DNA from: a virus
Length of the DNA stretch: 64,000 bases
IMG/VR virus record: IMGVR_UViG_3300028829_005098
Span: 1-64,000 of that record
Strand: one strand, 5' to 3'
In this document: positions 4,550 to 61,404 of the stretch, piece by piece
How positions within the stretch are numbered: the stretch's first letter is position 1
Layout: each line of letters opens with the position of its first letter
The notes under the pieces: model-generated
Seen by the model: only the letters and a program-made list of their open reading frames with translations
Database searches by the model: none
Told to the model about the DNA's origin: nothing
Translations under genes and position numbers: made by a program

Positions 4550-4565
4550 AAATTTAAAAGTTTAT

Positions 4566-4594
4566 GGGAGTGGTTGGGATTTCCAACCACTCCC
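4566..4594 (-). terminator. 12-bp GC-rich hairpin between SSB and uvsX (terminator or processing/stabilising stem)
   Basis: GGGAGTGGTTGG-GATTT-CCAACCACTCCC perfect inverted repeat just after the SSB stop. Confidence 0.65.
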
Positions 4595-4602
4595 GTTTTT
4601 TG

Positions 4603-5433
4603 TTAAGACTTAAACAACTCTTCAAAAGCAGCCTCTACATCTTCAGTTGAAGTTGCATTTGGTTTGCTTTTTTCAGAAGTCGTGCTTTCTGCGGTTGGTG
4701 CTGAAGCAACGGTTTTTTCTGTCGATTCAACAACAACATCAGAATCTACTGACTCGGCAGGAGGAGCATCTTCTTCAGATTCCCCACTTACCCACTTTTC
4801 AAGTGCGTCTTTTAATTCATCGTAACCAAGTTCTTGATAAATATCTGTAATTTCAGGTTGATTGTTAGCAACATTCTCTACGATATTTTTATTATCTGAA
4901 ATAGGTGATGTATTTGGTTTCACACGGATGTTTGTCTTTGGAAAAGAACGACCTGCTTCTTCTGCTGAAAGAAATTCAATTGTGATATCTCTTCCATTAG
5001 TTGCATCGGTGATGTCTCCATAATCGGGATCAGCAATAACACTTAATAGTTCTTGATAAACTTCTTTACCAAATCCCCAAAAACGAACTCCTTCTGCTTC
5101 TTCATCACGAACGATGACAGGTACAAATGTACGCATCTTCGGCATAAGAGAACGACCCATGCGGTAATCATCTTTGTCACCACTACGAGTTAACTTTTCA
5201 GCAAACTCAACGATTGGGTCAGGACGACCAAACGACTTTGGTGATAAGTATGTTCTATTATTGATTCCATAATGAAAATACAACTCAATAAATGGATTAT
5301 CGGGTTGATGCTTGTATGGTACAATACGAACTTGTTGCTTACCAGGTTGAGGTTTCCATTGATAGTTTTTGCGATTATTTGTCTGAGACAAATTATTCAA
5401 CTTTGCTTTTATTTTATTTAGGTCAATTGCCAT
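4603..5433 (-). CDS. gp32: Single-stranded DNA-binding protein (T4 gp32-like)
   Basis: WKP..G...VRIVP, PFIELYFHY, FWGFGKEVY, DITDATNGRDI, acidic C-tail ending AFEELF; next to uvsX. Confidence 0.88.
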   Translation of the reverse strand: MAIDLNKIKAKLNNLSQTNNRKNYQWKPQPGKQQVRIVPYKHQPDNPFIELYFHYGINNRTYLSPKSFGRPDPIVEFAEKLTRSGDKDDYRMGRSLMPKMRTFVPVIVRDEEAEGVRFWGFGKEVYQELLSVIADPDYGDITDATNGRDITIEFLSAEEAGRSFPKTNIRVKPNTSPISDNKNIVENVANNQPEITDIYQELGYDELKDALEKWVSGESEEDAPPAESVDSDVVVESTEKTVASAPTAESTTSEKSKPNATSTEDVEAAFEELFKS

Positions 5434-5474
5434 TGTATATTCCTTAATTTGTATTTGTTATTATTATTCTTAAT

Positions 5475-5503
5475 ATAATACTATTCGTTTTGAGTTTCGT
5501 CAA
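5475..5503 (-). promoter_or_regulatory. Sigma70-like promoter for the SSB-uvsX-exonuclease genes
   Basis: TTGACG-17 nt-TATTAT, then an A-rich leader with AAGGA RBS. Confidence 0.7.
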
Positions 5504-5518
5504 TCAGAATTATATTAA

Positions 5519-5749
5519 TCAAGAGAATTTTCCGCCATTTTCAACGAAATTGTAAAAGTCAGAAGCAACTTCTAATACTTCATGTGTAGTTGGTAATGGT
5601 GGCATATCAGGAGAAACTTTTTCAAAATTTGCATAACTTTGCAATTCTTCTTTTTCCATGTGCCATCTTTCCCATACCATTTCTTTTGCACTTTTTAGCA
5701 CTTCCAATCGAATACCGAGATTGGTTAATTTATCAGATTCATTTGTCAT
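5519..5749 (-). CDS. Small hypothetical protein of a type seen in T4-like phages
   Basis: IRLEVLKSAKEM ... PTTHEVLEVASDFYNFV pattern; ATATTTAT motif upstream at 5798-5805. Confidence 0.6.
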   Translation of the reverse strand: MTNESDKLTNLGIRLEVLKSAKEMVWERWHMEKEELQSYANFEKVSPDMPPLPTTHEVLEVASDFYNFVENGGKFS

Positions 5750-5820
5750 TTTTTCAATTATTATTATTCAATTACATTAACGAATTAATGCGTGTATATA
5801 AATATATTTCAGACTATGTT

Positions 5821-6603
5821 TTATGTCAATTTCAAAGCATTTTTTTGAATATTTTTTTCAATTCTTTCGCATGAAATTTCAACTGCTTTTTTGTTAATAT
5901 CACATCCTATGTATCTACGATTTAAAGAATTAGCAACATCAAGTGTTGTTCCACTTCCGCAATAAAAATCTGCAACTAAATCTCCTTCATTGCTACTTGC
6001 TTTTATTATTCTTTCAAGTATCTTTGGATGTTTTTCTGAATAATAATCAGTTTGTTTTTTAACTTTTAGTCCAGATGGAATATCATCCCATACATTTGTT
6101 GGAATTGTTCCAAGTGCTAACTTTTCTGCGGTGATATTGGGACGATCTTGTTTTTTACTAATTACAGATTTGTATGGAACTCGGATATCTAAATCATTAA
6201 AAACAAAATCGTTTGATTTTGTATACACAATTATATAGTCATGTTTTTTTGCAAATTCTTTTTTTCCACGGCCACCTATATTAAATTTTACTACAATTTG
6301 GTTTCTGAAATTACTATAACCGAATATGTCATCCATAATATTTCGTATCCAGTGAACGATACGTAAATCCATTTGAAGGTATATTGTTCCTGCATCTTTT
6401 AATACACGATGCATTTCTGTTAAACGTGGAATATAGTGTTGTTCTATAACTTTTTTAGTTGGAACTAAATCTTCATAATCTTTGAATATCTTTCCAGTTC
6501 CATATAAAATGTCACAATAAATTAAATTTAATTCATTAGACTTTATATTATTTAATAATTTTATATTATCACAACAATAGATGTTGTTTTCTTTTATTAT
6601 CAC
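5821..6603 (-). CDS. DNA N6-adenine/N4-cytosine methyltransferase (beta-class motif order)
   Basis: LIYCDILY at motif IV position, FRNQIV, KHDYIIVYTK, HPKILERIIKASSNEGDLVADFYCGSGTT (motif I), YIGCDIN. Confidence 0.85.
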   Translation of the reverse strand: MIIKENNIYCCDNIKLLNNIKSNELNLIYCDILYGTGKIFKDYEDLVPTKKVIEQHYIPRLTEMHRVLKDAGTIYLQMDLRIVHWIRNIMDDIFGYSNFRNQIVVKFNIGGRGKKEFAKKHDYIIVYTKSNDFVFNDLDIRVPYKSVISKKQDRPNITAEKLALGTIPTNVWDDIPSGLKVKKQTDYYSEKHPKILERIIKASSNEGDLVADFYCGSGTTLDVANSLNRRYIGCDINKKAVEISCERIEKNIQKNALKLT

Positions 6604-6605
6604 TA

Positions 6606-8171
6606 TTAAACTTTTCCACCTTCGTATCGTTTCATCTCACCATTATTGTAACGATAACGAACCTCAACCTCCACACTTTCTTTTGCTTCACCATATCCTT
6701 CTTCAATTACATCATAAGTAAGAATATTAATTGGTTTTTTTATTATTTCGTGTAGATATGCCATAGTACCTGTTGCATACTTTATATCAAGTGGACGACC
6801 TTCAAAATCATGTCTTAACAAAATTTCTGTATTTTTATATTTCATATTTTCAAGATAAATTACAGGACGACCCATATTAATATGTCTGTCTATTAATTTC
6901 TTTTTAATACGTTTATAGTCTTTGCTAACTACAACATATTTGTTGGTTGACTTATCAAGTGCATATTCAAAATACTCGTGCTTCTCACAAAAATCTCTTG
7001 TAAAAAATTCATTTAAAAATGTAACATCATTATAGTTCTCACGAACTTCATATAGTTTTTCACGACCTAGATTTAAGTTTTTATTCCAGTGAAGTTTTTC
7101 AAAACCATCATCACAATTTTCATACTCTTTTCCGAATTTACCTTTATTCCATCGGTCTTCAATATCACGCAACAAAGTATTTCCAAGTTTGTATGGATTG
7201 TTCATGTTATATTTACCACCCAAAACTCCTGCGTGGTGTTTTGCATAATCAAAAATACCATCGTCACCTGCAAAATTGCAAGTTGCCATTATATAAGAAT
7301 CCCAATAACTTGCCCAACCTTCGTTTAATACTTTTGTCATCCCCTGTGGTTGGTAGTAAATTGACTCATCACGAATCATACTTAAAATATTTTGTTGCCA
7401 AGGTTCTAAACGACAATGGTTGATAATGAATAACATAATATCTCGTTCAGGATGCAATGGAAACTTACTTTCGGCAAGTTTAGTTCTTTCTTCTCGTTCA
7501 CGACGTTGCTTTTCGATATAATGAGACGGATTTACATACTTCTGCATATATTCTTTTGTATCCATTCTTGATACGTGTTCACGTGGACGTCGGTCTTCAA
7601 AATTAAACTTTGTTGCTTTCTTTAAACTACTTTCACGATAGCACAATGATGGATCAATTAAATCGTCAATAGCAAGAGCCGCATTTAAAAAGTCTTTTAC
7701 CTTTTTGCGACCAAACCTATCCATGTACATACGAATTTTATCACTATGGTTTGCCATAACATTCATCATGTTACGATTCGTATGTTTGAACATAATATTA
7801 TTTTTAAAGAAGTCACTATGTGCAGTTGCGTGGGCAACAACTGTTAAATTATCAACAATAGGGTTGTTTCTTTGTAGATACATATAAGTTGGATCTGTGT
7901 TTACAACCATTTCGTAAATCTTACCCATACCTGAATGGTATTGATAGTGGAGTTGTTCAAATTGTTGTCCAAAATTAAAATGAGGATAACGAACTGGGAA
8001 TCCACCATAGGCTGCAATCTCAACTATTTCGTCCGCATCAAATTCTTCAATTACGAGTGGATATGGATCAAGTCCATTGTCATAACAGGCCTGTAAGCAT
8101 TCAGGTATTAACTTTGCTAACTCAGGACTTACTCCTTCGTTTAAACTATCGATTTCCCATGCAATTCCCAT
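6606..8171 (-). CDS. spoVR: SpoVR/YcgB family protein
   Basis: AYGGFPVRYPHFNFG, KIYEMVVNTDP, VVAHATAHSDFFKNN, TKVLNEGWASYW, NPYKLG. Confidence 0.95.
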   Translation of the reverse strand: MGIAWEIDSLNEGVSPELAKLIPECLQACYDNGLDPYPLVIEEFDADEIVEIAAYGGFPVRYPHFNFGQQFEQLHYQYHSGMGKIYEMVVNTDPTYMYLQRNNPIVDNLTVVAHATAHSDFFKNNIMFKHTNRNMMNVMANHSDKIRMYMDRFGRKKVKDFLNAALAIDDLIDPSLCYRESSLKKATKFNFEDRRPREHVSRMDTKEYMQKYVNPSHYIEKQRREREERTKLAESKFPLHPERDIMLFIINHCRLEPWQQNILSMIRDESIYYQPQGMTKVLNEGWASYWDSYIMATCNFAGDDGIFDYAKHHAGVLGGKYNMNNPYKLGNTLLRDIEDRWNKGKFGKEYENCDDGFEKLHWNKNLNLGREKLYEVRENYNDVTFLNEFFTRDFCEKHEYFEYALDKSTNKYVVVSKDYKRIKKKLIDRHINMGRPVIYLENMKYKNTEILLRHDFEGRPLDIKYATGTMAYLHEIIKKPINILTYDVIEEGYGEAKESVEVEVRYRYNNGEMKRYEGGKV

Positions 8172-11946: not shown

Positions 11947-13248
11947 TCAAACCTTTAGTTCTTTTAGATTGCCATATGAATTACCAACATAAACTCGTAG
12001 TGGAAATTTATTATTGTCAGTAAGTTCTTTGATTATATCTTTAATTAAATAAAACTCATCTTTATGCATATCCAGCATAAAAGCATCATAATGATACAGA
12101 AACAATTTACTTCTGTGAGTTTCTAATCGTGAATTCAATTTTAATATCATATCACAATTTTGTTCCGTCTCTGCTGATTGAATTAAATAGTTAAATAACT
12201 TATATGGATTGAGTTGAGTAAAATACTCTTTACTTATTTTTCTACTATATTTCCAAGTAGTAACATAACCCTTGTTATTAAATTCACTCCACACAGAATC
12301 AACATAATCTGCCACACACTTCATGAATGGAATGTGTTTTTTAATATCTTCTGATATACCTCCATATATTAAATTAAATGTTACTTTTTTTGATAACTCA
12401 TATTCTTTTTCATTCAAATGCTCTTTATCGTGATAAAACTTTCCAAGATATTCGTGCAAAGAATATGAAGGTAATTCAAAATTTAAATAGTCACCGACTA
12501 ATCTTAAATGATAACTCTCATAATCAATCATTACAATACCACCCTCGTTTCCAAATCTACTTACAAATGAATCTCGTTCATTTTTCTTTTTATTAAGAGC
12601 CGCAAAGTTAATTTTAGCAAATCTATTACTTGGACGAGTTGTTGGTGTATAATAATTATATTGACTATACACATAATTGCTATCGTCTATTAATGATAAG
12701 TCACCTAGATTAAATGTATCTCGGTTTACATAAACTCCATTCGTTTCTATATCATAAAAACATTTACATAAATTATTTGATAATCTTGTATTATTATCAT
12801 CTTCAGTTCCGATATAAGAATTTAAAAGTTTCAAGGTATCGTCGAAACTTTTTTTTAGTATCATAATAGGTACAGATTTTATGTCGGAAAACCTTGGATA
12901 TTTATATGTTATTTGTTCAAGAGTAGTAACATAAACATCATACGATAAATCAATAAAATTATCTACATTTAAAAAATGATTTGCTTCTTTTTTATTTAAA
13001 ATATATTTTTTACATCTTGTATCAATTAACTTAGTTAAACATCTATTATCGAGTAATACTACATCAGGGTGACCAAATGATAATACATAATTTTCATTTG
13101 TTTCTCTGTGATGCACAAACAAAGCAATCAGTTCTGCTTTACTCGGATGTATTCGTTCATCATATATCAACTGAAAAAAACTATGTCCTGAATTAAGTTT
13201 ATTCAGCAACGAAACAAACTCATCATAAGTTTCTACAAAATTTAACAT
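11947..13248 (-). CDS. Miniature family-A DNA polymerase (degenerate 3'-5' exonuclease region, reduced thumb)
   Basis: YNYYTPTTRPSN (TGRLS-like), motif A IDYESYHLRL, motif B SKKVTFNLIYG, NYLIQSAE, motif C LYHYDAF. Confidence 0.8.
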   Translation of the reverse strand: MLNFVETYDEFVSLLNKLNSGHSFFQLIYDERIHPSKAELIALFVHHRETNENYVLSFGHPDVVLLDNRCLTKLIDTRCKKYILNKKEANHFLNVDNFIDLSYDVYVTTLEQITYKYPRFSDIKSVPIMILKKSFDDTLKLLNSYIGTEDDNNTRLSNNLCKCFYDIETNGVYVNRDTFNLGDLSLIDDSNYVYSQYNYYTPTTRPSNRFAKINFAALNKKKNERDSFVSRFGNEGGIVMIDYESYHLRLVGDYLNFELPSYSLHEYLGKFYHDKEHLNEKEYELSKKVTFNLIYGGISEDIKKHIPFMKCVADYVDSVWSEFNNKGYVTTWKYSRKISKEYFTQLNPYKLFNYLIQSAETEQNCDMILKLNSRLETHRSKLFLYHYDAFMLDMHKDEFYLIKDIIKELTDNNKFPLRVYVGNSYGNLKELKV

Positions 13249-50650: not shown

Positions 50651-53158
50651 TCAGAATCTCATTATACCCATGATTTGGTTAATGGGAGCAAATGTTCCTG
50701 TAAGTTTATATGTTCCACCTTTGTATTGAAATACAACACCTTCTGTTGGTGCGATTGACTTGCTTCCTCCGATAGCATTTAAACGAGCAAGATTTTTATT
50801 TAGTTTCTCCATGTCTTTTTTAAACTTATCAGGAGATTCCACCGAACTTAGTTTCTTGCCTTCAAGTGTTTTAACATGAGCATCAAGTGCTTTTGCTATA
50901 TCATCACTTCCACCAGCCGCAACGAATCCTTTTACGTTCTGAAGAACTTCCGCACCTAATTTCAAAAAGATAAATTGAAATGGCCACATATTTTCTTCAA
51001 ATTGTTTTACTAAATCTTCTTTATCAAATTTATTAACCCATGCTTTTAATTTAGGTTGTTTTTCTAAATCCATACGAATTGTGGTAATTTTATTTGATTT
51101 GTCATTATATGCCCAACGACCTATCAATGCTTCAAATACTTTTGGTGGAAACGTTTCTTTTGATTTATTTTGTTGTTTATTTAATAAATCTCTCCACCAA
51201 GCATCGTGATACTTCATCACTTTATCGTTGTCTTTTAATTTAAATTTCTTTTTTAGTTTATCAAGCATTGCAGAATATTTTGAAAACGAATCACCAAAAC
51301 TTTTACTTTTAGGAAGTTCCACCACAATCGGTGCATTTAATGAATATCTTTTTTGAACATCTGCATTTACTTGCTTTAACATACCTTTAAGCATTCTAGC
51401 AGAGTCTTTTAATTCTGCGGTAATATCGTTTCCATCGGAATCTTCACTTACTGCTTTTCCTGCGGAATTGTATGCCTGTGTTCCGTGAAATACCAACATA
51501 TCTACATTCTGAGGAATAACATTTTGAGTTGCGGGTGTCATTACCTCTATATTCATAAAACGTTCACCTTCTTTGAATACCTTACTTCGTTGTTTTTCAC
51601 TCAACTTGGATATAGCAGATTCTAAATCAGTAACTGCACTCACGAACGCATCACGAATGTTTTCGGGACGATCAGCAAATATACTTTCAAATTCTTTTAC
51701 ATTAGGAGCGGCTGCACCTGCGTTTTTTAAATGCCCTTGATTTCTTGCAGCCACTAATTGTCCATCTTTCCAAGAAAACATTAAATTTTGACCATCTAGT
51801 TTTTCAGTTACTTCTTTTTCAACATTTAATTCACCAGACAACGACCTGCGAATCATTTCTTTTAAATCAGCAAATGTTAAATCCCGATCATCGAAAGGAT
51901 GACTCATATGACCAGCCGCACCTCCTTCTGTTAATAATACTTCGTTGATAGCATGACCTTCTACACCTTTATCTATTTCTTCATCATCTTCTGCTTTGTC
52001 GGTATCTATGGTATTTGTTCCTGATCTTAGATCTTCATCTCCTTGTTCATCTTTCTTACGAATTGATTTTTCAGAACCAAGAAAATCTACAAGTTTATAT
52101 CCTGCAGTTTCTGCAACACCATTTATGAAATTGACCCACTGAGTGTGTGCTGATTGTGATTTCTCAAAATCTATTTGATTCATTGGAGTATTTGCATCTA
52201 TATCTCCTGCAGGATAAAAACTTACCGCAGGAACTGGTCCTGCATATTTTCCCCATTCACGATAATCTGCATTACGACCTAATCCATGTTTTCCTACTAC
52301 ATAGTCAAGTAAATCATAACCTAATTGTTGTGCTCGTTTACTTGTATTTCCTTCGTATGATTGTCCAGGGTAAAACATACTTGGTCCATCGTCAACCATT
52401 GTTTTTCCAAGAGCAGAAATTGAACTTATTTCATTAAGAAGTGTCGGTATACTATTCACGAACTTCTTAAATTTTGGATATTCTTTTAAAAATCCTTCAA
52501 ATATTTCTTCATTTTCAAATAAAGTTGCAAACTTTTTTGTTAGATAGTCATAGATCTTTTCATCATACCAACCAAATAATTCTTTGAATGCTTGTTTTCT
52601 TTGTTCATCGGAATACTTTGGACTTCCAAGCAAGTCACGAATTCTTGTTCCACTTACTTCCCCACCGAGAACTTTAATGCTTACATGAGGAGCAACGATA
52701 AAGTATCCATGTTCTGCATATGGTTTTAATTTACCTTTATTTTTAACATATGACTGATAATAAGCAGGTGAACCATCTGCTTTCGTGGTTTTTAATCTAC
52801 CTGCATCTTTTTCTCCAAATATATAAATAACCGCAGTTGTGTTTGGATCATATTTTTTAAGTATCTCTTCACATACATATGGGTTTTTTACTTGAACTAC
52901 ATTTTTTACTTTGTGCTTTGTCCATATCATTTTCTTTTCTTTAAAGTTCAATGGACTTTTAGAAGAGTCGGTTTTATTGCTAGTTGCTACATATGCTTTA
53001 TCAAATTTTCCGTCCAACCATTTATAGGTTTTATAGTGATGCACACCCGCGGGTTGAAATCTACCTGGATAAATTCCAATTATTTTTCGTATTTTACCTT
53101 CGTTTAGTAGATTGTCTACAAGAAACTCAGATAATTTATCTGTGAAATCATCATTCAT
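50651..53158 (-). CDS. Fusion of HIGH-superfamily (cytidylyltransferase-like) nucleotidyltransferase and a ligase-fold (KxDG) domain
   Basis: IYPGRFQPAGVHH, SPLNFKEK, VSGTRIR; later GGAAGHMSHPFD, TEKLDGQN (motif I), FMNIEV, TEGVVF (motif IV), YKLTG (motif V). Confidence 0.7.
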   Translation of the reverse strand: MNDDFTDKLSEFLVDNLLNEGKIRKIIGIYPGRFQPAGVHHYKTYKWLDGKFDKAYVATSNKTDSSKSPLNFKEKKMIWTKHKVKNVVQVKNPYVCEEILKKYDPNTTAVIYIFGEKDAGRLKTTKADGSPAYYQSYVKNKGKLKPYAEHGYFIVAPHVSIKVLGGEVSGTRIRDLLGSPKYSDEQRKQAFKELFGWYDEKIYDYLTKKFATLFENEEIFEGFLKEYPKFKKFVNSIPTLLNEISSISALGKTMVDDGPSMFYPGQSYEGNTSKRAQQLGYDLLDYVVGKHGLGRNADYREWGKYAGPVPAVSFYPAGDIDANTPMNQIDFEKSQSAHTQWVNFINGVAETAGYKLVDFLGSEKSIRKKDEQGDEDLRSGTNTIDTDKAEDDEEIDKGVEGHAINEVLLTEGGAAGHMSHPFDDRDLTFADLKEMIRRSLSGELNVEKEVTEKLDGQNLMFSWKDGQLVAARNQGHLKNAGAAAPNVKEFESIFADRPENIRDAFVSAVTDLESAISKLSEKQRSKVFKEGERFMNIEVMTPATQNVIPQNVDMLVFHGTQAYNSAGKAVSEDSDGNDITAELKDSARMLKGMLKQVNADVQKRYSLNAPIVVELPKSKSFGDSFSKYSAMLDKLKKKFKLKDNDKVMKYHDAWWRDLLNKQQNKSKETFPPKVFEALIGRWAYNDKSNKITTIRMDLEKQPKLKAWVNKFDKEDLVKQFEENMWPFQFIFLKLGAEVLQNVKGFVAAGGSDDIAKALDAHVKTLEGKKLSSVESPDKFKKDMEKLNKNLARLNAIGGSKSIAPTEGVVFQYKGGTYKLTGTFAPINQIMGIMRF

Positions 53159-53673
53159 TTAGATTTCAAAACTTCAGATAAAATTGTTCTTATTTGTACT
53201 CGTAGCTTTTCTTCGTAAACTTTTCTTTCTACAAACTTATTGAATTCACCCTTTGACATATCAGATACATAATCTGCCATATCCTCAAATCCTTTTCGTT
53301 CTAACCAAGAAATAACTTTATCTTTTGCTTTTAATACACTTGAATGTAATCCTGACATAAAACTTATTGCTTTTTTATATTCTGGACTCGTTAACTTTAT
53401 TTCATTTACTTCTTTCATTTTTGTTTCCTCATATAGTGACATATAAAAATCTTCGTCAGAACTTGCGGATTGAAAATCACGATATGCTTGTTCTGCTTCT
53501 TTTCCCACGAGTATTACTTTGCCCCTTGGGAAGTATAATATTTCATCTCCTTTTTTAAATTTCACTCCTCCTTTTCTTAGTCTTCTTTGTACAGGTAATC
53601 TTTGTTCACCAGAAACTCCGTCATATTTTGACTTCATCCAAACTGGATCATCTTTATATCTTGCTTCGTTCAT
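53155..53673 (-). CDS. Hypothetical protein (start re-called at MNEARY)
   Basis: ATG directly after upstream stop; YKDDPVWM...KKGDEILYFP module; C-terminal KLRVQIRTILSEVL helix. Confidence 0.55.
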   Translation of the reverse strand: MNEARYKDDPVWMKSKYDGVSGEQRLPVQRRLRKGGVKFKKGDEILYFPRGKVILVGKEAEQAYRDFQSASSDEDFYMSLYEETKMKEVNEIKLTSPEYKKAISFMSGLHSSVLKAKDKVISWLERKGFEDMADYVSDMSKGEFNKFVERKVYEEKLRVQIRTILSEVLKSK

Positions 53674-53674
53674 A

Positions 53675-54028
53675 TCAGTCTTCAAAGTATTCAATTACTT
53701 TTCCTGTTTTAATATTATTTTTGCAGGCTTTTCGTTTATCACGATGTAGATGTGGTGCTTTATCAAGATACTCTGTGGTACAATGAAATATATAACCATC
53801 CACCACAGGACCTTCTGTTGTTTCTCCTTCACTATATACTCCGATAAATTTAAAGTCATCTTTTTCTTTTTTAACAAATTTGCTTGCAAGAGACTTTGCC
53901 CAATTTTCATTTCCTGCTTTTTTTGAAGAATAACTATATCTAGAATGATTTGGTGCTAGTTCAAGTCTCCAAGTTTCTCCAAGTTTTTCTTCTTGAATTA
54001 ATTCATCTAATATTTTTTCAAAATTCAT
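53675..54028 (-). CDS. Hypothetical protein
   Basis: ATGA-coupled to the kinase gene; N-terminal FEKILDELIQEE helix. Confidence 0.55.
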   Translation of the reverse strand: MNFEKILDELIQEEKLGETWRLELAPNHSRYSYSSKKAGNENWAKSLASKFVKKEKDDFKFIGVYSEGETTEGPVVDGYIFHCTTEYLDKAPHLHRDKRKACKNNIKTGKVIEYFED

Positions 54029-55068
54029 TTTTCACCCTTAAACTTTAATGAACGAATTTGGTGAAAGTATTTTACGATCTGATTCCTTGATAAATTCAGA
54101 CTTTCTACCAATCTCGATAATACCGCAAGATTTCTTCGTTCGTTTAATTTAAATTTTCTAATTACATAAATAGACCTACTCAAATGTCTTTCTAAATCCA
54201 TAGGAAGAACGACATCTTCCATAGAAACTATATCTAATTCCTCATTCACACGATTTCGTTTATCACCACTCTTAGTCATTTTATCATGTGCCATCATCAT
54301 TTGTATCCACTTTTTACCAATTGGATTTCGTATGGGTTTTGCAACAAATCGTGCAGTTGCTTTTAAAACGTGTGGAACTAAATCTAGTCTTCCTGGTTTC
54401 TTTTTACTACGAGTATCTTCAGAGTTATCTACAATAACAAAGTTTTTTCCAAATGAACCTTGAAACTTACCAAGATTTTTTTGTACATCGGTCCAAATAT
54501 CTTTTACTATTTTTCTTGGAAGTTTTCTTTTACGCATTGCGTTTCTTTGTTGTGCAACTTCAAGTGTTGTGTTAACAAACACCATATAACAATCGTATCC
54601 AAGTTTTTCTAGTTCTTTCTTTTGCTTAGATATTTTGTTATAGTTATCACCAGTTCCATCAACAATAACACCAAGACGATTATTTTTAAACATTTCAAAT
54701 TGTCTTAACATAATTTTCTTTGCACGGGAACGAATACTATTTGGATCACCACTTGTCACTTTGCTAAATGTTTCATCGTCCATTTTGGATAAATTTAAAT
54801 CGTATCCTGCTTTCTTTAGAAGTATTTCAAACGCAGGATCACTATTAACTATCTTTAACCCACTTGGAGACAAATTAGTTGCTTCGGGTGGAAAATCAAA
54901 TATTGTATCAACGGTAGCAGATTTACCAGATCCAGGACCTCCCGCTAAAAATACTGCTTTTAGAATACCAGGATCATACACACCCTCTACAAGTGTAAAA
55001 TATCCTTTACGCAATCCTGCTTTAATCAGGGTTTCTTTGACTTCTTGGTTTTTTTCGGAATCTTCCAT
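54025..55068 (-). CDS. P-loop kinase of the zeta-toxin / polynucleotide-kinase-like group
   Basis: KAVFLAGGPGSGKS, IVNSD..FE, VIVDGTG, VFVNTTLEVAQQRNAMRKR (lid), IVDNS. Confidence 0.75.
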   Translation of the reverse strand: MEDSEKNQEVKETLIKAGLRKGYFTLVEGVYDPGILKAVFLAGGPGSGKSATVDTIFDFPPEATNLSPSGLKIVNSDPAFEILLKKAGYDLNLSKMDDETFSKVTSGDPNSIRSRAKKIMLRQFEMFKNNRLGVIVDGTGDNYNKISKQKKELEKLGYDCYMVFVNTTLEVAQQRNAMRKRKLPRKIVKDIWTDVQKNLGKFQGSFGKNFVIVDNSEDTRSKKKPGRLDLVPHVLKATARFVAKPIRNPIGKKWIQMMMAHDKMTKSGDKRNRVNEELDIVSMEDVVLPMDLERHLSRSIYVIRKFKLNERRNLAVLSRLVESLNLSRNQIVKYFHQIRSLKFKGEK

Positions 55069-55088
55069 AAATACAATTCAGGTACATA

Positions 55089-55096
55089 ATAAATAT
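55089..55096 (-). promoter_or_regulatory. ATATTTAT putative late promoter heading the kinase-to-135aa gene run
   Basis: Recurrent motif, 20 nt upstream of ATG 55068. Confidence 0.55.
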
Positions 55097-55111
55097 ATAT
55101 CTAAATATGTT

Positions 55112-57712
55112 TTATACTCCGTATTTTATCTTACTAAAAGAACCTTCTTTTTGAATTTCTATAATCTCGTCCACCATATCTCTCATTACATCCAAATGAC
55201 TGATGACCATTATGAACTCAAACTGCCCCTTTAAATAGGTAAACAGATTAAATACACTACTTATGTTGTCTCCATCCAAAGAACCCCACCCTTCGTCAAT
55301 AACAAGGAAATTAGAACGTGGCAAACTACTTACATTAATAAGTGCTACTCGCATTGCGATACTGCTAATGAAACGTTCCATGCCACTACACATTTCAAGT
55401 GGCCAATGACGATCTTCATATGTAATCTTTGAGTAAATATGCTTTCCGTCCATCTCAAGTTGCATACCAAAGTCAACAATTTGAGAAAGAATATTATTAA
55501 CTTCACTTTCAATGCTTGGAATTGTTTTGGAAATAAGTTCATATGAAATACCATCTCGTTTTACTGCATCAAGATATAGTTCGTATCCTCGTTTCTTTCT
55601 TTCATACCCCTTTGCCTCTTCAATAGATTCTAAAACATCTTTATGTTCTTTTTCTACAATTTTAACTTCACCAAACAAACCTTGTAATTTCATTGTTTCG
55701 TTTGATACTATTTCGTCTACTTTTTTTAATTTTTCTTTTACTAAATCTGCATCTACTTGTAGTTTTTTATTGAATAGAATAATATCTTTACACTCATAAT
55801 ATTCTTCAATGCTTTTATCGTTTAATAGTATATCTTTTTCAAGTGACTCAAGTATACTTGAAAGTGCAAGAATTTTAGAATCTACGTCACTTATTTCATA
55901 CGACATTTGATTTAGTTTGGTTCTATCTTCAATTAGTTTTTTATGTTGTTCTTCTATATCACCAAATTTATCTAATGTTTTAGTAAGTTCAGTTTTAGTC
56001 TTAACTAGTTCATCGGCATCTGCTTTATCTTTATCAAGTTCTTTTTTAGTAATAGCCGCACTATCAATCAAATTCTTGGAATTCTTTACACAAAACTCAC
56101 ACTTAGGATCATATTCATGACTATCATAGTGTTTAAGTTTATCTAATTTAGCATTAACAGATGTTCTTAAAACTGCTAAGTCTTTATCTACTGACATTAG
56201 TTCTTCTTTTATTTTTAATGACTCGATAAAATTATCTTCTATATGTTTTCTTTTGCCCAACGACTTGGTTAGTTCAGACTTTTCGTTTGCTAATTGTTTT
56301 TTTCTGTCGGATTCTTTTTTTCTATTATCGTTTGCTATTTCAAGTCTATCTCTTAAATTTCTTTTATTATACTCAAGTTTATCTATATCTACATTTTCTT
56401 CATCAAACGAACAATTTTTAAATTGAGAATTAATTTCAGCAAGACTATTATTTAATATTTTTTGTTCAGCAAGTGCTATATCAGTTTTTTCGTTTTGTTC
56501 GTTATATCTTAAATTAACATCGTTAAGTTTTTCTTGTACATTCAATAAAAGTTCATCGAAGTTTTCACGATTAAATCTTTTAAGTAAAGCATTTATTTCT
56601 TTTATATCTTCAGATGCAGTTGAATGCAAATTATCAAATACATCAATACCCATAAATTGTGCAAGTAAATCTTTACGTTCACTTTGACTTTTATCTATAA
56701 AGATTGCATTGTTGTTTTGCAAACTTAATGCAGTTAAAACAAAATCTTCATACGAACCCACATGATCACGAATATTTGCATTTGTACCTGTTCGTTGTTC
56801 TCCGTTCAAAGATACTTTTTGTCCAGTAGAATCGTTTTTCCAAAAATCTACTACCACAGTAACATCTCCATTCTTTTTAGTAGAAGCATTTCTTTCAATA
56901 AAGTAATCTACACCAGAAATCTCAAAGTTTAACTTACAATAAAAACTATCAGTCTGTGTATTTAGTACATGGGCAGCCTTGAATGCTCTGTCACACTTAT
57001 CATATAAACAAAAACTTAATGCACTCATTACACTACTTTTACCACTTGCATTTGAGGCAAATAAACCCATAACACTTTTCATATTTGAAAAGTCTACAAT
57101 GTTTGAGTCTCCGTAACTAAACATATTGCCGAATTCAAACTTTTTAGGTTTCCATATGCAATTTCTAAGAATTTCCTTTACAACAAGTTTATCATTTATT
57201 TCTTTGTTGATATCGAGTGCAGTTTTGATTTGTTCATCATCTACTACGAAATTTCTTCTAAGATAATCTTCTATTAAATCATTTTGAACATGAACCTTTG
57301 TAATATCACCAAAGTCAAATTTATTATCACGATCAAACTTTTTTGCTTCAGAAATAGCATCACACCTTGTTACATTTAAATCAGATATACTAGTTTTCTT
57401 ACGAATCTCCGCAAGAATTTCTTTAGTTTCAGTTGCAGTTGTGTTATATACTTTTACACGAAGTCTTGCCTTTTTTGGCAATTGACTTAAATCACTTACA
57501 CATTTACCATCACGAACCTCTACCGTATAATAACCATAATCGTTATGCACTTCGTGGTGTGTGTGTTTTCTATTTTTAATATCCCAAAAAACATAACCAT
57601 GACCCTTTGGTTTTTCTCCATGATTTTGTTGAATCATGCTACCCGAGTATACCACAACAGGTTTCTCACCGTTGTGTCTTTTTATTTTTACATATGTTTT
57701 TGGTTCATCCAT
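55112..57712 (-). CDS. Rad50/SbcC (gp46-like) ATPase fused to the C-terminal part of Mre11/SbcD
   Basis: N-terminal VVYSGSMIQQNHGE..GHGYVFWD (SbcD end); Walker A ASNASGKSS, zinc hook CEFC, signature CSGMERF, Walker B LVIDEGWGSLD, ISH. Confidence 0.9.
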   Translation of the reverse strand: MDEPKTYVKIKRHNGEKPVVVYSGSMIQQNHGEKPKGHGYVFWDIKNRKHTHHEVHNDYGYYTVEVRDGKCVSDLSQLPKKARLRVKVYNTTATETKEILAEIRKKTSISDLNVTRCDAISEAKKFDRDNKFDFGDITKVHVQNDLIEDYLRRNFVVDDEQIKTALDINKEINDKLVVKEILRNCIWKPKKFEFGNMFSYGDSNIVDFSNMKSVMGLFASNASGKSSVMSALSFCLYDKCDRAFKAAHVLNTQTDSFYCKLNFEISGVDYFIERNASTKKNGDVTVVVDFWKNDSTGQKVSLNGEQRTGTNANIRDHVGSYEDFVLTALSLQNNNAIFIDKSQSERKDLLAQFMGIDVFDNLHSTASEDIKEINALLKRFNRENFDELLLNVQEKLNDVNLRYNEQNEKTDIALAEQKILNNSLAEINSQFKNCSFDEENVDIDKLEYNKRNLRDRLEIANDNRKKESDRKKQLANEKSELTKSLGKRKHIEDNFIESLKIKEELMSVDKDLAVLRTSVNAKLDKLKHYDSHEYDPKCEFCVKNSKNLIDSAAITKKELDKDKADADELVKTKTELTKTLDKFGDIEEQHKKLIEDRTKLNQMSYEISDVDSKILALSSILESLEKDILLNDKSIEEYYECKDIILFNKKLQVDADLVKEKLKKVDEIVSNETMKLQGLFGEVKIVEKEHKDVLESIEEAKGYERKKRGYELYLDAVKRDGISYELISKTIPSIESEVNNILSQIVDFGMQLEMDGKHIYSKITYEDRHWPLEMCSGMERFISSIAMRVALINVSSLPRSNFLVIDEGWGSLDGDNISSVFNLFTYLKGQFEFIMVISHLDVMRDMVDEIIEIQKEGSFSKIKYGV

Positions 57713-58634
57713 TGGTTATAATATTTAAAATTTCTTCTCCTAATTCTGAATCAGTTAAGTAAGGACTTAAGTGATGGTGACCTTGGAGTGGGAAATAGCA
57801 ACATGGTCCTAAAAAAGGAGAACGATTCTCAGTTACATCGACGTTCTTACGATGTTGTTGCCAATGAATACCTTTTGGTCCGAACATTTGGTGTATGTAA
57901 TCAGTAGATATAATAGTTGGTACTCTAAGTGCAGATGATATATTTGTAATACATCCCTCTGCACCAATTACATAATTGCAATTTTTAATCAACGATGCAG
58001 TGAATGTAAATTTGCTTGTGGAATTTATTGTAGGAAATCGTTTAGATATTTTATCTTCAAGACCAAGTGCAAATAAAATTATCTTAGGGTGCGTTTCCAA
58101 ACAATTAATTATTTCAAATGTATCTCTTTTTCCAGAACCATATCCATTTCCTGTTTCACCACCCTCCGCACGATTATATTCTTCTTCTGTAAAAAGAAAA
58201 CTTTTATTGTGCCAATCCATTTGGTATCCAACTTTGATAACATCAGTTTGCCAATGATTTATAGCAACAAGCTCTTCCATACTTTTACTTACACCATAAT
58301 CAAGTGCAGAAGAAGTAAAAATTTCAAAGGTATCGTCGAAAGCTTTTATATCACACATTCGTTGAAACTGAGATACTGCCGATTCGTATGGATTTAAGGT
58401 AGCACCATCTTCTATTAAATTGTATACATGAGAATAATCGTTTCTTGAATCTTTGAAATGTACTCTATTGATATAAGGATTATTATTTAGCAATTCTATT
58501 GGTTGTAGATAATCAATATCATAATCAACTTCACAATCTATATGTTCTTCTTTTAATTTTTTTGCTACACTACTTGCAAACAGAATATCACCAATATGAA
58601 TGTTTCTACACTTAATTAAAAATCTTTTAATCAT
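57705..58634 (-). CDS. GT-B fold glycosyltransferase, GT9 (heptosyltransferase)-like; start re-called at MIKRF
   Basis: HIGDILFASSVAKKLK...ELLNNNPYINRV and ASLIKNCNYVIGAEGCITNISSALRVPTI match the N- and C-terminal GT9 patterns. Confidence 0.7.
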   Translation of the reverse strand: MIKRFLIKCRNIHIGDILFASSVAKKLKEEHIDCEVDYDIDYLQPIELLNNNPYINRVHFKDSRNDYSHVYNLIEDGATLNPYESAVSQFQRMCDIKAFDDTFEIFTSSALDYGVSKSMEELVAINHWQTDVIKVGYQMDWHNKSFLFTEEEYNRAEGGETGNGYGSGKRDTFEIINCLETHPKIILFALGLEDKISKRFPTINSTSKFTFTASLIKNCNYVIGAEGCITNISSALRVPTIISTDYIHQMFGPKGIHWQQHRKNVDVTENRSPFLGPCCYFPLQGHHHLSPYLTDSELGEEILNIITNG

Positions 58635-59331
58635 TACAAACCTCCCATCCATCGAGTTTATATTTCTCTAGTGTGTTTTCCGACACAAATCTATGCTCAG
58701 TTTTGTATTCCTGTAATACTTGGTATTTGTGAATATCTCCGAGCATTACAATATCATATCCATTGAATTGTGGTAATTCAACATCACCACCCATAACAAC
58801 ATACCCAACATCAGTCATACTTCGTTTTACTGCTCCGTGGTAAACTGCTATTTTAGTTGTTATACTCTCATCTGTAATATCAGAACCCACTATATAATTT
58901 TGTGGATCATCAAATATTCCAAATACACTAATTGCTATATCACCGATTTTATATACACCTGTATCTCTTAAATAATACAGATTAGGTTGGTCCATCATTC
59001 CAACTATGGGTGATAGAACATCCAACCTATCTGGATTATTTAGATTGCAATCATGATTGCCTGCTATAACTACAGTGGGGTGTAGTTTAGCACATTCTGA
59101 TAAAAAAGTTGCTATTTGTTTTATGAGTTCTGGACTCATTTCTGTTTTAGCATGAGCAATATCTCCACCAATAAAAATTAAGCAGTTATCGTAATTGTCT
59201 TCTTTAACTTGATTGTAAAAGTTTTCAAATACACCTGTATACTCGGAATGCCTTTTGATATTTCTAATATGAATATCTGCTAAATGGTAAACTTTATCAA
59301 TATTTTTTATCTGTGAATCTAACTCAAGCAT
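58627..59331 (-). CDS. Mre11/SbcD (gp47-like) metallophosphoesterase, N-terminal part only
   Basis: HLADIH, GGDIAH, IAGNHD, YHG, LGDIH motifs; the YxGS motif is missing here and present in ORF 55112-57712. Confidence 0.88.
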   Translation of the reverse strand: MLELDSQIKNIDKVYHLADIHIRNIKRHSEYTGVFENFYNQVKEDNYDNCLIFIGGDIAHAKTEMSPELIKQIATFLSECAKLHPTVVIAGNHDCNLNNPDRLDVLSPIVGMMDQPNLYYLRDTGVYKIGDIAISVFGIFDDPQNYIVGSDITDESITTKIAVYHGAVKRSMTDVGYVVMGGDVELPQFNGYDIVMLGDIHKYQVLQEYKTEHRFVSENTLEKYKLDGWEVCND

Positions 59332-60248
59332 AACCTCTGTTTCATTAATTCAGAAAAGTCTAGTTGTCCGCAACTTTTTATTTTCTTTGTAATTTGTTCA
59401 AACCCCAAATCGGCTGCATCTTGTTCTTCCACTTTAACTAACTTAACCGAAATCCCCTTGTTTAACAATTGCTCGGATATTTTAAGTGCATTTTTATATG
59501 CATCTTTATCAAGAACTATTGTTACATTATTAACATGATGCTCAACCAATTTCATTTTAAGTTTATCAGGAATGTTTTTACCTAACATCGGTATAGCATT
59601 TCTACGAATTGCGATTGCATCAAAAACTCCTTCGCACAATATAATTGGTTCAGAAAAATCAACTTGATTTTCAAACACAACCACATCTTTACTAACTTTT
59701 GGATTTTTATATCTTAAATAAGCATTTCCTATAAAATCACGAGCAATAAAGTAATTTAATTGATTATCCGAATCGTAAGACGGAACAATGATTCTATTTT
59801 CATATTCCCCTTCCTCACAATATCCTATATTATATCGTTCTATATCATAAGAAAATATATTTCTTTTTTTTAGATAATTTATAGCAATATTATGATTACG
59901 AGATTTGGTGGAAGAATGTAATAAAGATTTAAACTCAAACGGAAGATGAATTTTGTTTTCTACTTCTTTTTCAAGTTTTATATTCTTTGGTAATTTTACT
60001 ATTGTAGATAATTCTTGAAAATAATCAGGAGACACTTGCATTTTCTTGAATAAACTAAATATGCTTCTTCCTTTAGAATTGGTGTCAATCCAACTCTGCC
60101 ATCTTTGAGTTGTTAAGTTAACTGCAAGTTTTGGTTTTCTGTGGTTGGAGAACGGGCACATAAACATAGCTTCGTCTTTGGAAACTATTTTACCAGTTCC
60201 CAAAACTTTTTGAAGTAAATTCAAAAGTTTTTGTTCAAATATGCCCAC
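59319..60248 (-). CDS. DNA primase (DnaG/gp61-like TOPRIM)
   Basis: YLKKRNI, NRIIVPSY, YFIAR, YKNP, LCEGVFDAIA, LDKDA, DAAD. Confidence 0.88.
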   Translation of the reverse strand: MGIFEQKLLNLLQKVLGTGKIVSKDEAMFMCPFSNHRKPKLAVNLTTQRWQSWIDTNSKGRSIFSLFKKMQVSPDYFQELSTIVKLPKNIKLEKEVENKIHLPFEFKSLLHSSTKSRNHNIAINYLKKRNIFSYDIERYNIGYCEEGEYENRIIVPSYDSDNQLNYFIARDFIGNAYLRYKNPKVSKDVVVFENQVDFSEPIILCEGVFDAIAIRRNAIPMLGKNIPDKLKMKLVEHHVNNVTIVLDKDAYKNALKISEQLLNKGISVKLVKVEEQDAADLGFEQITKKIKSCGQLDFSELMKQRLCLS

Positions 60249-60252
60249 TATA

Positions 60253-60777
60253 CTATTCAGAATACCAATGATACAATGATGCTACTACCGCATCAAGCAT
60301 ATCATAATTTTTTTTATCATAATTTTTCTTAGTATTATAGTGAGTAAATTCAGATAAATCAAGCATATTATCTAAGTTGTTCTTAACAAATGTTTTGCTA
60401 TCTACACCAGATTCTCTTGATTTTCCAAAAACTGCTTTTCGCATTGTAGACACATTAATATGCTCTACTTCTATATTATACATCTCTTCTACTACATAAC
60501 TTATTATAGCATTACACTTTGCTAACTTTACAATAGTTTGTTGACTAGTTCTTCCTCCACCAAAACCACTTAACGAGTCTTCTACAATTATAAAGCAAGG
60601 TTGCAGTCGAGTATTTTTTAACTCATCTGCAACCTTGTGTGCTTTTTTCTTTATGGAGTTTTCTTTATTAACAGAAACAAATCCTGCGTGGATTATGTTT
60701 TCTTGGGAAGATGAAAAACAATAGCCTATTGTAGTTGAACTTATATCAAGTCCGAGAGATATTGGGTTATTTGACAT
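60253..60777 (-). CDS. RuvC-like Holliday junction resolvase
   Basis: LGLDISSTTIG, IIVED, MRKAVFG, YDMLDAVV. Confidence 0.8.
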   Translation of the reverse strand: MSNNPISLGLDISSTTIGYCFSSSQENIIHAGFVSVNKENSIKKKAHKVADELKNTRLQPCFIIVEDSLSGFGGGRTSQQTIVKLAKCNAIISYVVEEMYNIEVEHINVSTMRKAVFGKSRESGVDSKTFVKNNLDNMLDLSEFTHYNTKKNYDKKNYDMLDAVVASLYHWYSE

Positions 60778-60782
60778 ACCAA

Positions 60783-60811
60783 ATGATATGTCAAAAATTT
60801 TTAAAGGTCAA
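60783..60811 (-). promoter_or_regulatory. Sigma70-like promoter for resolvase-primase-sbcD-GT-sbcC genes
   Basis: TTGACC-17 nt-TATCAT, 5 nt before ATG 60777. Confidence 0.6.
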
Positions 60812-60813
60812 TG

Positions 60814-61404
60814 TTATTCAACACCTGAACGTGAGTTTCCGAGAACACTTGATCCGGATGACATTGCACCTGAACCTTGAGTTGCTACAAGTGACGTCAT
60901 CCATTCTTGGTATCTTTCGGTATCAAAACTTGTTCCACCACCTGAACGATAAAAACTACCTTTAGCAGCTGCTTCAGGACTACCTCCTCCGTAATCACTA
61001 TAAGTTGACATACCACGACTTATTTTGGTTGTGAATCCTGATATTGTTGATGATCCACCAAAACTATCGTTCATAGCTGCATCTACATCAGAGTTACCTC
61101 TATAAATGCCCTGTTCAGATGATTTAATTGCCTGTCCATAACCAAAGAAGTTAACACCTTGACCACGACCTGTTGCATTTGCAAATGAATTAAGTTGTGG
61201 TGCAGCCCCCGCTATTGGTGATGGCATAGATTCTCTGTAAAATGTTCCTTTGAGTTTTCCAGGTACTCCGTTTCCTCCGAAACGACCTTCAATACCACCA
61301 CGACGTCTTGAAAATCCACTTTGAAAGTCAACAAGACCTTTCCCACTGTCTAAACTATTTGCTTTAGTTGCTCCAGTTCCCATTCTTTTATCTTCGCCTG
61401 CCAT
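60814..61404 (-). CDS. Gly/Ser-rich putative virion protein, paralog of the N-terminal domain of ORF 16955-19489
   Basis: Shared FYR.SMP.PI.G, GQGVNFFGYG, GFTT, SDYG, SFYR motifs; AGGAG RBS; ATATTTAT at 61448-61455. Confidence 0.7.
   Translation of the reverse strand: MAGEDKRMGTGATKANSLDSGKGLVDFQSGFSRRRGGIEGRFGGNGVPGKLKGTFYRESMPSPIAGAAPQLNSFANATGRGQGVNFFGYGQAIKSSEQGIYRGNSDVDAAMNDSFGGSSTISGFTTKISRGMSTYSDYGGGSPEAAAKGSFYRSGGGTSFDTERYQEWMTSLVATQGSGAMSSGSSVLGNSRSGVE

Follow-up and report, generated by a model that had tools for sequence, protein, structure and literature searches.

A fractured SbcD-SbcC nuclease gene in a metagenomic myovirus, with a glycosyltransferase gene in the gap and a putative clasp at the break

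Introduction

Fractured genes, in which the N- and C-terminal parts of one host protein are encoded by two open reading frames (ORFs) with a free-standing gene between them, were described for DNA-metabolism genes of marine phages by Dassa, London, Stoddard, Schueler-Furman and Pietrokovski (Nucleic Acids Research, 2009; PMC2677866), with split inteins on the host parts and Vsr-like or GIY-YIG endonucleases in the gap. One intein-less case was reported in the same work, a single partial locus from the Lake Gatun sample of the Global Ocean Sampling data, where two ORFs encode the N- and C-halves of an SbcD-like nuclease, a Vsr-like homing endonuclease gene lies in the gap and overlaps the downstream ORF, and the fracture carries additional residues, 25 at the C-terminus and 9 at the N-terminus, that are not found in unbroken SbcD. 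The present work concerns a locus of this kind at positions 55112-59331 (minus strand) of a 64,000-nucleotide (nt) stretch of viral DNA, hereafter the window (positions 1 to 64,000 of IMG/VR record IMGVR_UViG_3300028829_005098), in which a fused SbcD-SbcC (Mre11-Rad50) nuclease gene is divided into two chains, with a putative GT9-like glycosyltransferase (GT) gene between them.

A second close parallel is the essential enzyme NrdA of phage Aeh1, whose gene is fragmented by the free-standing homing endonuclease gene mobE and whose two fragments both carry unique tails (Friedrich et al. 2007; Crona et al. 2011, PMC3045599). According to Crona et al. (Nucleic Acids Research, 2011; PMC3045599), the tails created by the mobE insertion are essential for activity, being needed for higher-order assembly and not for heterodimer formation, and such tails have been proposed to be a general means of making gene fragmentation harmless that differs from the splicing of RNA or protein. 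The initial annotation of the window, which was made from the letters alone, had already cited this precedent, and the comparison is apt.

The window locus resembles that of Lake Gatun in its split halves, its extra residues and the lack of an intein, and its upstream tail is likewise 25 amino acids (aa) long, but the gap holds a Vsr-like endonuclease gene there and a putative GT9-like gene, without an endonuclease, here. The general layout of fractured genes (host N-part, free-standing gene, host C-part, both host ORFs on the same strand) is found in the window as well, except that the intervening gene is not a homing endonuclease. Since no intein halves are present in the window, any rejoining of the chains would have to be non-covalent, unlike that of the fractured genes with split inteins. 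The endonucleases in the gaps of related loci belong to the same superfamily as the I-Bth0305I family (PMC3239194). Compared to Aeh1, which offers an essential phage enzyme, a free-standing homing endonuclease and tails on both fragments, the differences lie in the enzyme, in the HNH type of the endonuclease and in the tails: those of SbcD are predicted to form one mini-domain and are widespread, and in the window the endonuclease appears to have been replaced. The two-gene systems SbcD/SbcC, Mre11/Rad50 and T4 gp47/gp46 share the folds and motifs of the locus, but their boundary runs between Mre11 and Rad50, whereas in the window the two are fused and the cut lies inside the phosphoesterase domain, after motif V.

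The basic split with extra residues has been known since 2009 from one metagenomic locus (PMC2677866), and literature searches returned no later treatment of the SbcD case. What is added here is that the extra residues move together with an endonuclease, that their fold can be followed in unbroken forms, that natural re-fusions occur, that the passengers in the gap are diverse, and that the fusion to SbcC is documented. The account favoured here, which is regarded as probable when taken as a whole, is that a single ancestral gene was broken by a homing-endonuclease cassette that entered the surface loop following motif V of the phosphoesterase. The ends of the cassette would encode an acidic strand-helix-strand tail with a stop, and then a start with a basic strand. 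Chain 1 carries all metal ligands, and chain 2 the other core strands together with the capping domain and Rad50. The chains would be translated separately, coupled through 8-nt overlaps, and would reassemble non-covalently, which would complete the phosphoesterase beta-sandwich and close a small clasp made of tail and head. In the clade of the window, the endonuclease gene would have been replaced by the GT9-like gene, which would since have been inherited vertically as cargo, with the split now fixed.

Anatomy of the Split Gene

The ORF list with its translations contains three tightly packed genes in this region. The first of them (chain 1; 58627-59331, minus strand) encodes 234 aa followed by a stop, contains phosphoesterase motifs I–V and all metal ligands (DIH, residues 19-21; GD, 56-57; GNHD, 91-94; H165; GDIH, 198-201), and ends in ...QEYKTEHRFVSENTLEKYKLDGWEVCND. 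Chain 1 matches the Pfam family Metallophos (E-value, 6.2e-8; model positions 2-191 of 191 covered) and the SbcD-like phrog_100 (1.1e-13), and a family profile search of the PDB matched solved Mre11/SbcD chains (6e-10). The last ORF (chain 2; 55112-57712, minus strand, 866 aa) opens with MDEPKTYVKIKRHNGEKPVVVYSGSMIQQNHGE..GYVFWD and runs on into a full SbcC/Rad50. The rest of SbcD occupies approximately residues 17-190 of chain 2 (57143-57664), with two core sandwich strands (VVVYSGS and GYVFWD), the capping domain and a linker, and the sequences of unbroken relatives align across the break into this part. It is followed by the SbcC/Rad50 ATPase with its coiled coil and CxxC zinc hook (approximately residues 191-866 and the stop; 55112-57142). 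Chain 2 matches phrog_77 (1.1e-41) and the Pfam families SMC_N and SbcC_Walker_B, each under its own curated cut-off. The set of Rad50 motifs is complete (Walker A GKSS, signature SGMERF, Walker B/D-loop VIDEGWG, H-loop SHLD, hook CEFC), and the motif columns are invariant in the family alignment. The beta-sandwich and the capping domain are complete only with both chains combined. The initial annotation, in which motifs I–V were assigned to the first of these ORFs and the next expected element to the opening of the last, before a full Rad50, is thereby borne out by the ORFs as well as by the Pfam and PHROG matches.

The break is flanked by extra sequence on both sides. The last 25 aa of chain 1 (58630-58704, minus strand; KTEHRFVSENTLEKYKLDGWEVCND) form an acidic tail, predicted to be the strand-helix-strand part of the clasp, while chain 2 begins with a basic head (57665-57712, minus strand; MDEPKTYVKIKRHNGE), predicted to be the last strand of the same mini-domain and followed by KPVVVYSGSMIQQNHGE..GYVFWD. 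Between them lies the passenger gene (57705-58634, minus strand), the product of which has a length of 315 aa from the first ATG (58652) and 309 aa from the Met that matches the starts of its homologues. As the latter was taken as the start, both junctions are 8-nt overlaps, one between the chain 1 stop and the GT start (58627-58634; ATGATTAA) and the other between the GT stop and the chain 2 start (57705-57712; ATGGATGA), in agreement with the 309-aa gene and the overlaps described in the initial annotation. The second overlap suggests that translation of chain 2 is coupled to that of the GT gene. A GGAGG stretch, made by the G-W-E codons of the tail (GGATGGGAGG; 58635-58650), lies 6 nt before the passenger ATG, and the clasp coding sequence may, in the window clade, partly double as the Shine-Dalgarno sequence of the gap gene. 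The spacing of the corresponding G-W-E stretch in LR756508 differs from that in the window.

Within the window clade, the ratio of non-synonymous to synonymous substitution rates (dN/dS) was 0.08 for chain 1, 0.15 for the GT gene and 0.09 for the whole of chain 2, all approximate values given that dS (1.2-1.6) is close to saturation. Judged by these ratios, purifying selection acts on all three genes.

Unbroken and Split Relatives

A set of 279 related IMG/VR loci was obtained with an alignment and a protein as seeds; the matches listed were almost only unbroken genes. In total, 271 of these loci contain one unbroken SbcD-SbcC ORF, two are cut by contig ends, and the remaining six are split; all six are closely related to the window and carry its passenger. 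A locus search seeded with chain 1 of the window alone found nothing. Among database proteins, the chain 1 relatives that run past GDIH read ...GDIHKxQ..-(11-18 aa)-..Y.GS..QQNHGE.., followed by the Rad50 N-terminus. The loop after GDIH was compared in 270 unbroken genes and is 11-18 aa long in 265 of them, 34 aa in one and 44-50 aa in four. Microcystis phage Mel-JY01 has an unbroken gene (1066 aa, annotated as 'AAA domain containing protein') right after the primase gene, which is the synteny of the window. Foldseek analysis of an AlphaFold2 model of an unbroken relative revealed matches to Mre11/SbcD structures that include the nuclease and capping domains (3qg5, 4hd0, 7dog, 6s6v).

Split alleles are nevertheless numerous. 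The protein database contains more than 100 proteins of chain 1 size (approximately 220-245 aa) that are 44-99% identical to that of the window, all with the terminal pattern E-[IV]-D-E..L..Y-L..G-W-E; split proteins P0058-P0117 are known from this source only. A degenerate, tail-specific DNA pattern (GDIH...Y...GWE) recovered 73 IMG/VR stretches, nearly all of which are chain 1 homologues, down to 32% identity. More than 15 independent IMG/VR contigs (68-82% identity) share the three-gene order of the window, and the gene of a huge phage, LR756508.1, has its break at the same position. Over approximately 160 split alleles, again down to 32% identity, the tail keeps the above pattern, the head reads K-I-K-[IV]-[KR]-[KR], and the core strands and the capping domain of chain 2 are conserved. 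In the sampled loci, the downstream chain of split alleles always starts with a short basic strand, e.g., M(S)KKIKIKRK.P. These tail and head extras were found with every split allele sampled, and are absent from the 265 unbroken genes with a loop of 11-18 aa. The mean net charge over 45 distinct split loci is −5.4 for the tail and +4.8 for the head, and the two co-vary in charge. The flanking extras to which the initial annotation had drawn attention are thus real and conserved.

The fold of the extras can be followed in four unbroken genes with a loop of 44-50 aa (loci L083, L163, L293 and L353), where the tail and head pieces stand in series. In the AlphaFold2 model of L083, the insert consists of a strand (residues 207-214), a helix (215-223), a second strand (227-228), a loop of lower confidence (predicted local distance difference test score, pLDDT, ~76) and a third strand (237-244), and the natural breaks fall within that loop. 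Thus, the model supports the initial proposal that the flanking extras constitute one small strand-helix-strand-strand domain, the last strand of which comes from chain 2. The possibility that the tail is a degenerate duplicate of the QQNHGE..GY.LW segment downstream of the break was considered as well (MAFFT and tblastn alignments) and was ruled out, as L083, L163 and L293 hold both in series.

In one deep clade (L336:~2600-7900, minus strand of the locus; also L289, L344, L320, L288, L310, L315, L335, L345, L347 and L354), SbcD-SbcC is found in at least three pieces. The order is chain 1 (~229 aa), an endonuclease gene or nothing, an ORF of 72-94 aa limited to the basic head plus the YSGS..QQN.GE strands, then one or two short ORFs (74-133 aa), and a protein of ~780-940 aa ending in SbcC. 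The second fracture point of this clade lies ~70 residues past the first.

Mobility of the Cassette and Re-Fusion

The tails of different host lineages (..QEYSEE.IE.DE..L.EYLKKGWEI) are more alike than the host-specific loops that they replaced. The clearest case is the pair L305 and L320, the nuclease cores of which are 71.5% identical at the protein level, with endonucleases that are 97% identical and tails that are identical. At the DNA level, identity is 60-82% (mostly 60-75%) over the body of chain 1, rises to 98-100% in its last ~100 nt, that is, the tail, remains at 95-100% through the endonuclease gene and at 93% over the initial ~60 nt of chain 2, which encode the head, and falls to 57-74% in the remaining part of chain 2. 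This profile indicates a recent lateral transfer of a cassette, the ends of which include the coding segments of tail and head. Judged from these alignments, the clasp travels with the endonuclease as part of the mobile cassette. As in Aeh1 NrdA, the tails are therefore derived from the mobile element: they are absent from the 265 unbroken genes and moved with the endonuclease in this pair.

On a tree of nuclease cores (94 representatives, with the trait columns left out), the presence of the mini-domain requires 20 parsimony changes, at least six of them forced by well-supported branches, and the split and unbroken alleles are interleaved. Pairs of split and unbroken alleles were found with cores that are 90-97% identical. 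The split L328 (133-nt gap) and the unbroken L293, which has retained the mini-domain, share 93% DNA identity and differ by a clean 154-nt indel: L293 equals L328 minus 154 nt between 8-nt direct repeats (GAAGAAAT), with an in-frame fusion of ...GWEIVEE to NKIRKAQ.... Another unbroken allele, L058, represents a scar, in which the mini-domain is reduced to its first strand and the basic strand (loop of 34 aa); in the core, L058 and the split L318 share 90% identity. Re-fused alleles exist, but are rare. As two-chain and one-chain versions replace each other in near-identical backgrounds, it is likely that the two-chain form is functional.

Contents of the Gap

The distance from the chain 1 stop to the chain 2 start ranges from −16 to 3663 nt across the split loci. 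Clustering of the gap ORFs revealed a main endonuclease family (23 ORFs of 280-350 aa from many lineages) with Zn-ribbon-like CxxC repeats and a C-terminal nuclease domain that matches TnsA-like N (27.2 bits; cut-off 26.5), DUF559/Vsr-like (28.3 bits; cut-off 20.6) and phrog_1271. A second, Vsr-like family is found in L330 and L349. The gap of L318 (335 nt, 12059-12393) contains a remnant of this second family, corresponding to its C-terminal part (..FDFGIESKKILIEIDGDYWH..), with no long ORF, and on this evidence is read as a decaying endonuclease gene. Empty or near-empty gaps measure −16, −14, 3 and 82-233 nt.

Cargo other than endonucleases was found next to them in the larger gaps, namely a pyridoxal phosphate (PLP)-dependent enzyme (PALP, 222 bits) and a fragment of a DNA methylase. 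The passengers at this site in the relatives are therefore endonucleases, a PLP enzyme, a methylase fragment, or nothing. The PLP-dependent enzyme gene is located in L283 (8535-12208, gap of 3663 nt) along with genes for a DUF559/Vsr-like endonuclease and for a 256-aa protein of repetitive sequence, as well as a small membrane-like ORF, whereas L295 (2280-4556, gap of 2272 nt) contains endonuclease pieces and the fragment, which is of an N6/N4 DNA methylase.

The Passenger Glycosyltransferase

No match to the passenger was found in Pfam (E-value ≤ 0.01) or PHROG, with neither Glyco_transf_9 nor a nuclease domain detected, and the precomputed Pfam annotation is empty in all 120 of the passenger homologues listed; about 150 homologues were found. 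An AlphaFold2 model built from 28 homologues (pLDDT, 88) has a GT-B fold with two Rossmann domains, and its best Foldseek matches in the PDB are GT9 heptosyltransferases (3tov, 6.6e-10; 1psw, TibC and WaaC; also 4rap and 2h1f) with TM-scores of ~0.5. The proposed likeness to GT9, also put forward in the initial annotation, is one of predicted structure.

In the gap, this GT family is confined to the window clade (15 loci and the window), where it is present in every member. Among these loci it diverges faster than the flanking chains (51-68% vs 76-79% aa identity). The distant GT homologues (34-38% identity) are not located near SbcCD. Those of L356 (1150-10293) belong to a viral glycan-building cluster, together with two GT4, a GT2 and a GT7-like gene, a hexapeptide acyltransferase, KAS III and a PhyH dioxygenase. 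Their location away from SbcCD, within a glycan cluster, suggests that the passenger represents an ordinary viral glycosyltransferase family that was recruited to the gap by one clade. On its distribution, the GT gene is a later cargo confined to that clade.

Predicted Reassembly of the Two Chains

Chain 1 was co-folded with residues 1-190 of chain 2, using custom alignments and three controls. The interface score (ipSAE) was 0.88, vs 0.00 for the best of the three controls; the runs agreed in at least 94% of the contacts, and the pLDDT of the partner was at least 75. In the calibration of such co-folds, 58 of the 80 solved complexes and 2 of the 110 mismatched pairs attained this mark. In the model, residues 13-16 of chain 1 (motif I) pair with residues 40-43 of chain 2, and residues 194-197 of chain 1 pair with residues 19-22 of chain 2, which completes the phosphoesterase sheet. 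The interface also includes tail residues 227-234, placed against head residues 5-27. The two proteins probably clip back together via the small acidic/basic clasp. The initial interpretation of the locus as a naturally split enzyme rejoined by strand complementation is upheld by the unbroken relatives and by the predicted complex. The clasp may be required for activity, for which its conservation, the charge complementarity and the predicted contacts give indirect support.

Alternative Explanations

Several observations limit or weigh against the fractured and reassembled nuclease proposed above. The co-fold was expected to pass because the two chains are parts of one fold for which Mre11 structures have been solved, and its success speaks for likeness to this known fold, which the pieces fit, rather than for binding. 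All metal ligands are located in chain 1, which alone may therefore keep residual activity. The tail and head of the window itself are weakly charged (−2 and +2, respectively). The deep split lineages were sampled by a pattern that requires the tail; clasp-less split alleles lie outside its reach, and no ancestral state was inferred. Finally, an intermediate with an endonuclease and a GT gene together was not found among the loci compared, and the replacement of the one by the other is therefore deduced from distribution.

The initial annotation had assigned a role in the split to the GT gene, as a passenger that is locked into an essential gene. A selfish or 'addictive' GT gene, which caused or maintains the split and cannot be lost, would be in line with its exact fit to the gap and its presence throughout the window clade, but is considered unlikely. 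The same break point and clasp recur in lineages of much greater diversity, where the gap is filled by endonucleases or other genes, or is empty. The fracture represents a site of homing endonucleases, and the clasp belongs to a mobile cassette, whereas the GT gene is restricted to one clade, has diverged more rapidly than the sequences on either side and carries no signature of transfer. Moreover, the possible natural re-fusion by deletion means that the site does not lock its content, and the distant homologues of the GT are found as ordinary genes in glycan clusters. This part of the initial interpretation is not retained. A comparably low probability is given to an inactivated nuclease, the pieces of which are decaying, or the Rad50 part and/or chain 1 of which act separately without reassembly. 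The confinement of the metal ligands to chain 1 would suit such a scenario, as would the fact that the association of the chains is a prediction; it is hard to reconcile with the low dN/dS of both chains, the conservation of chain 2 over the split alleles, the charge co-variation of tail and head, and the coexistence of near-identical split and fused alleles. In addition, chain 1 by itself lacks two sandwich strands that are predicted to pair with its own motif-I strand.

Restoration of a single polypeptide, whether through splicing of RNA or protein or through translational bypass, is regarded as very improbable, even though split inteins are used by other fractured phage genes (Dassa et al. 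2009, PMC2677866). An Rfam scan of positions 54000-61000 revealed no intron family above chance (two chance-level matches only), no Hint/intein Pfam domain is present in either chain, and the gap of 915 nt is occupied by a conserved protein gene on which purifying selection acts. An atypical split intein was also considered, as the 25-aa tail is about the size of short natural N-inteins, and was ruled out, because the C-side piece (the head) is only ~16 aa long and there is neither a Hint domain nor any junction nucleophile. An assembly or sequencing artefact, i.e., a chimeric contig or a false frameshift, might be suspected in a metagenomic viral contig with an estimated completeness of 58%, but is hardly credible when the same three-gene order recurs on the independent contigs mentioned above and the arrangement is found in many protein clusters of independent sources.

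Significance

A further-reaching interpretation, put forward tentatively and with slightly less than even confidence, is that homing-endonuclease cassettes bear at their ends a portable module for the healing of fractures, namely the acidic-tail/basic-head mini-domain. After decay of the endonuclease, the translationally coupled slot would recruit unrelated cargo (the GT9-like gene here, the PLP enzyme and the methylase fragment elsewhere), and could be re-sealed by deletion. If true, such a clasp would join introns and inteins as a third means by which a selfish element can insert into an essential gene without doing harm. The locus supports the suggestion of Crona et al. (2011) of a general tail-mediated, non-covalent repair. 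In marine phages, this arrangement constitutes a widespread and evolving system, every intermediate state of which is visible: the gene may be unbroken, split around an endonuclease, split with an empty gap, split around cargo, or re-fused. The cargo slot offers a concrete example of how an essential DNA-metabolism operon of a phage gains new genes. As modelled, the clasp would be a natural and compact split-protein complementation pair (approximately 25 + 10 residues), and thus a candidate tool for protein engineering. Knowledge of Mre11-Rad50 chemistry is left unchanged by this locus.

The Host Phage and Neighbouring Genes

The source record is a 115-kb IMG/VR contig of a large marine myovirus, with genes for terminase, portal, major head and sheath proteins, a DnaB-like helicase, a primase and a RuvC-like protein; a tRNA search found none. 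In the region 59319-60777, the DnaG/Toprim primase gene (309 aa, phrog_47) shares 13 nt with the start of chain 1, and the gene for the RuvC-like resolvase precedes that of the primase. The gene order from primase to SbcD-SbcC is conserved, and is the same in Mel-JY01 and LR756508. Directly downstream of the Rad50 gene (50651-55068), a Zeta-toxin/AAA_33-like P-loop kinase (347 aa; Pfam, 1.4e-11) is encoded, and the same region contains a gene for an 835-aa protein with a weak match to the NAD-ligase adenylation domain.

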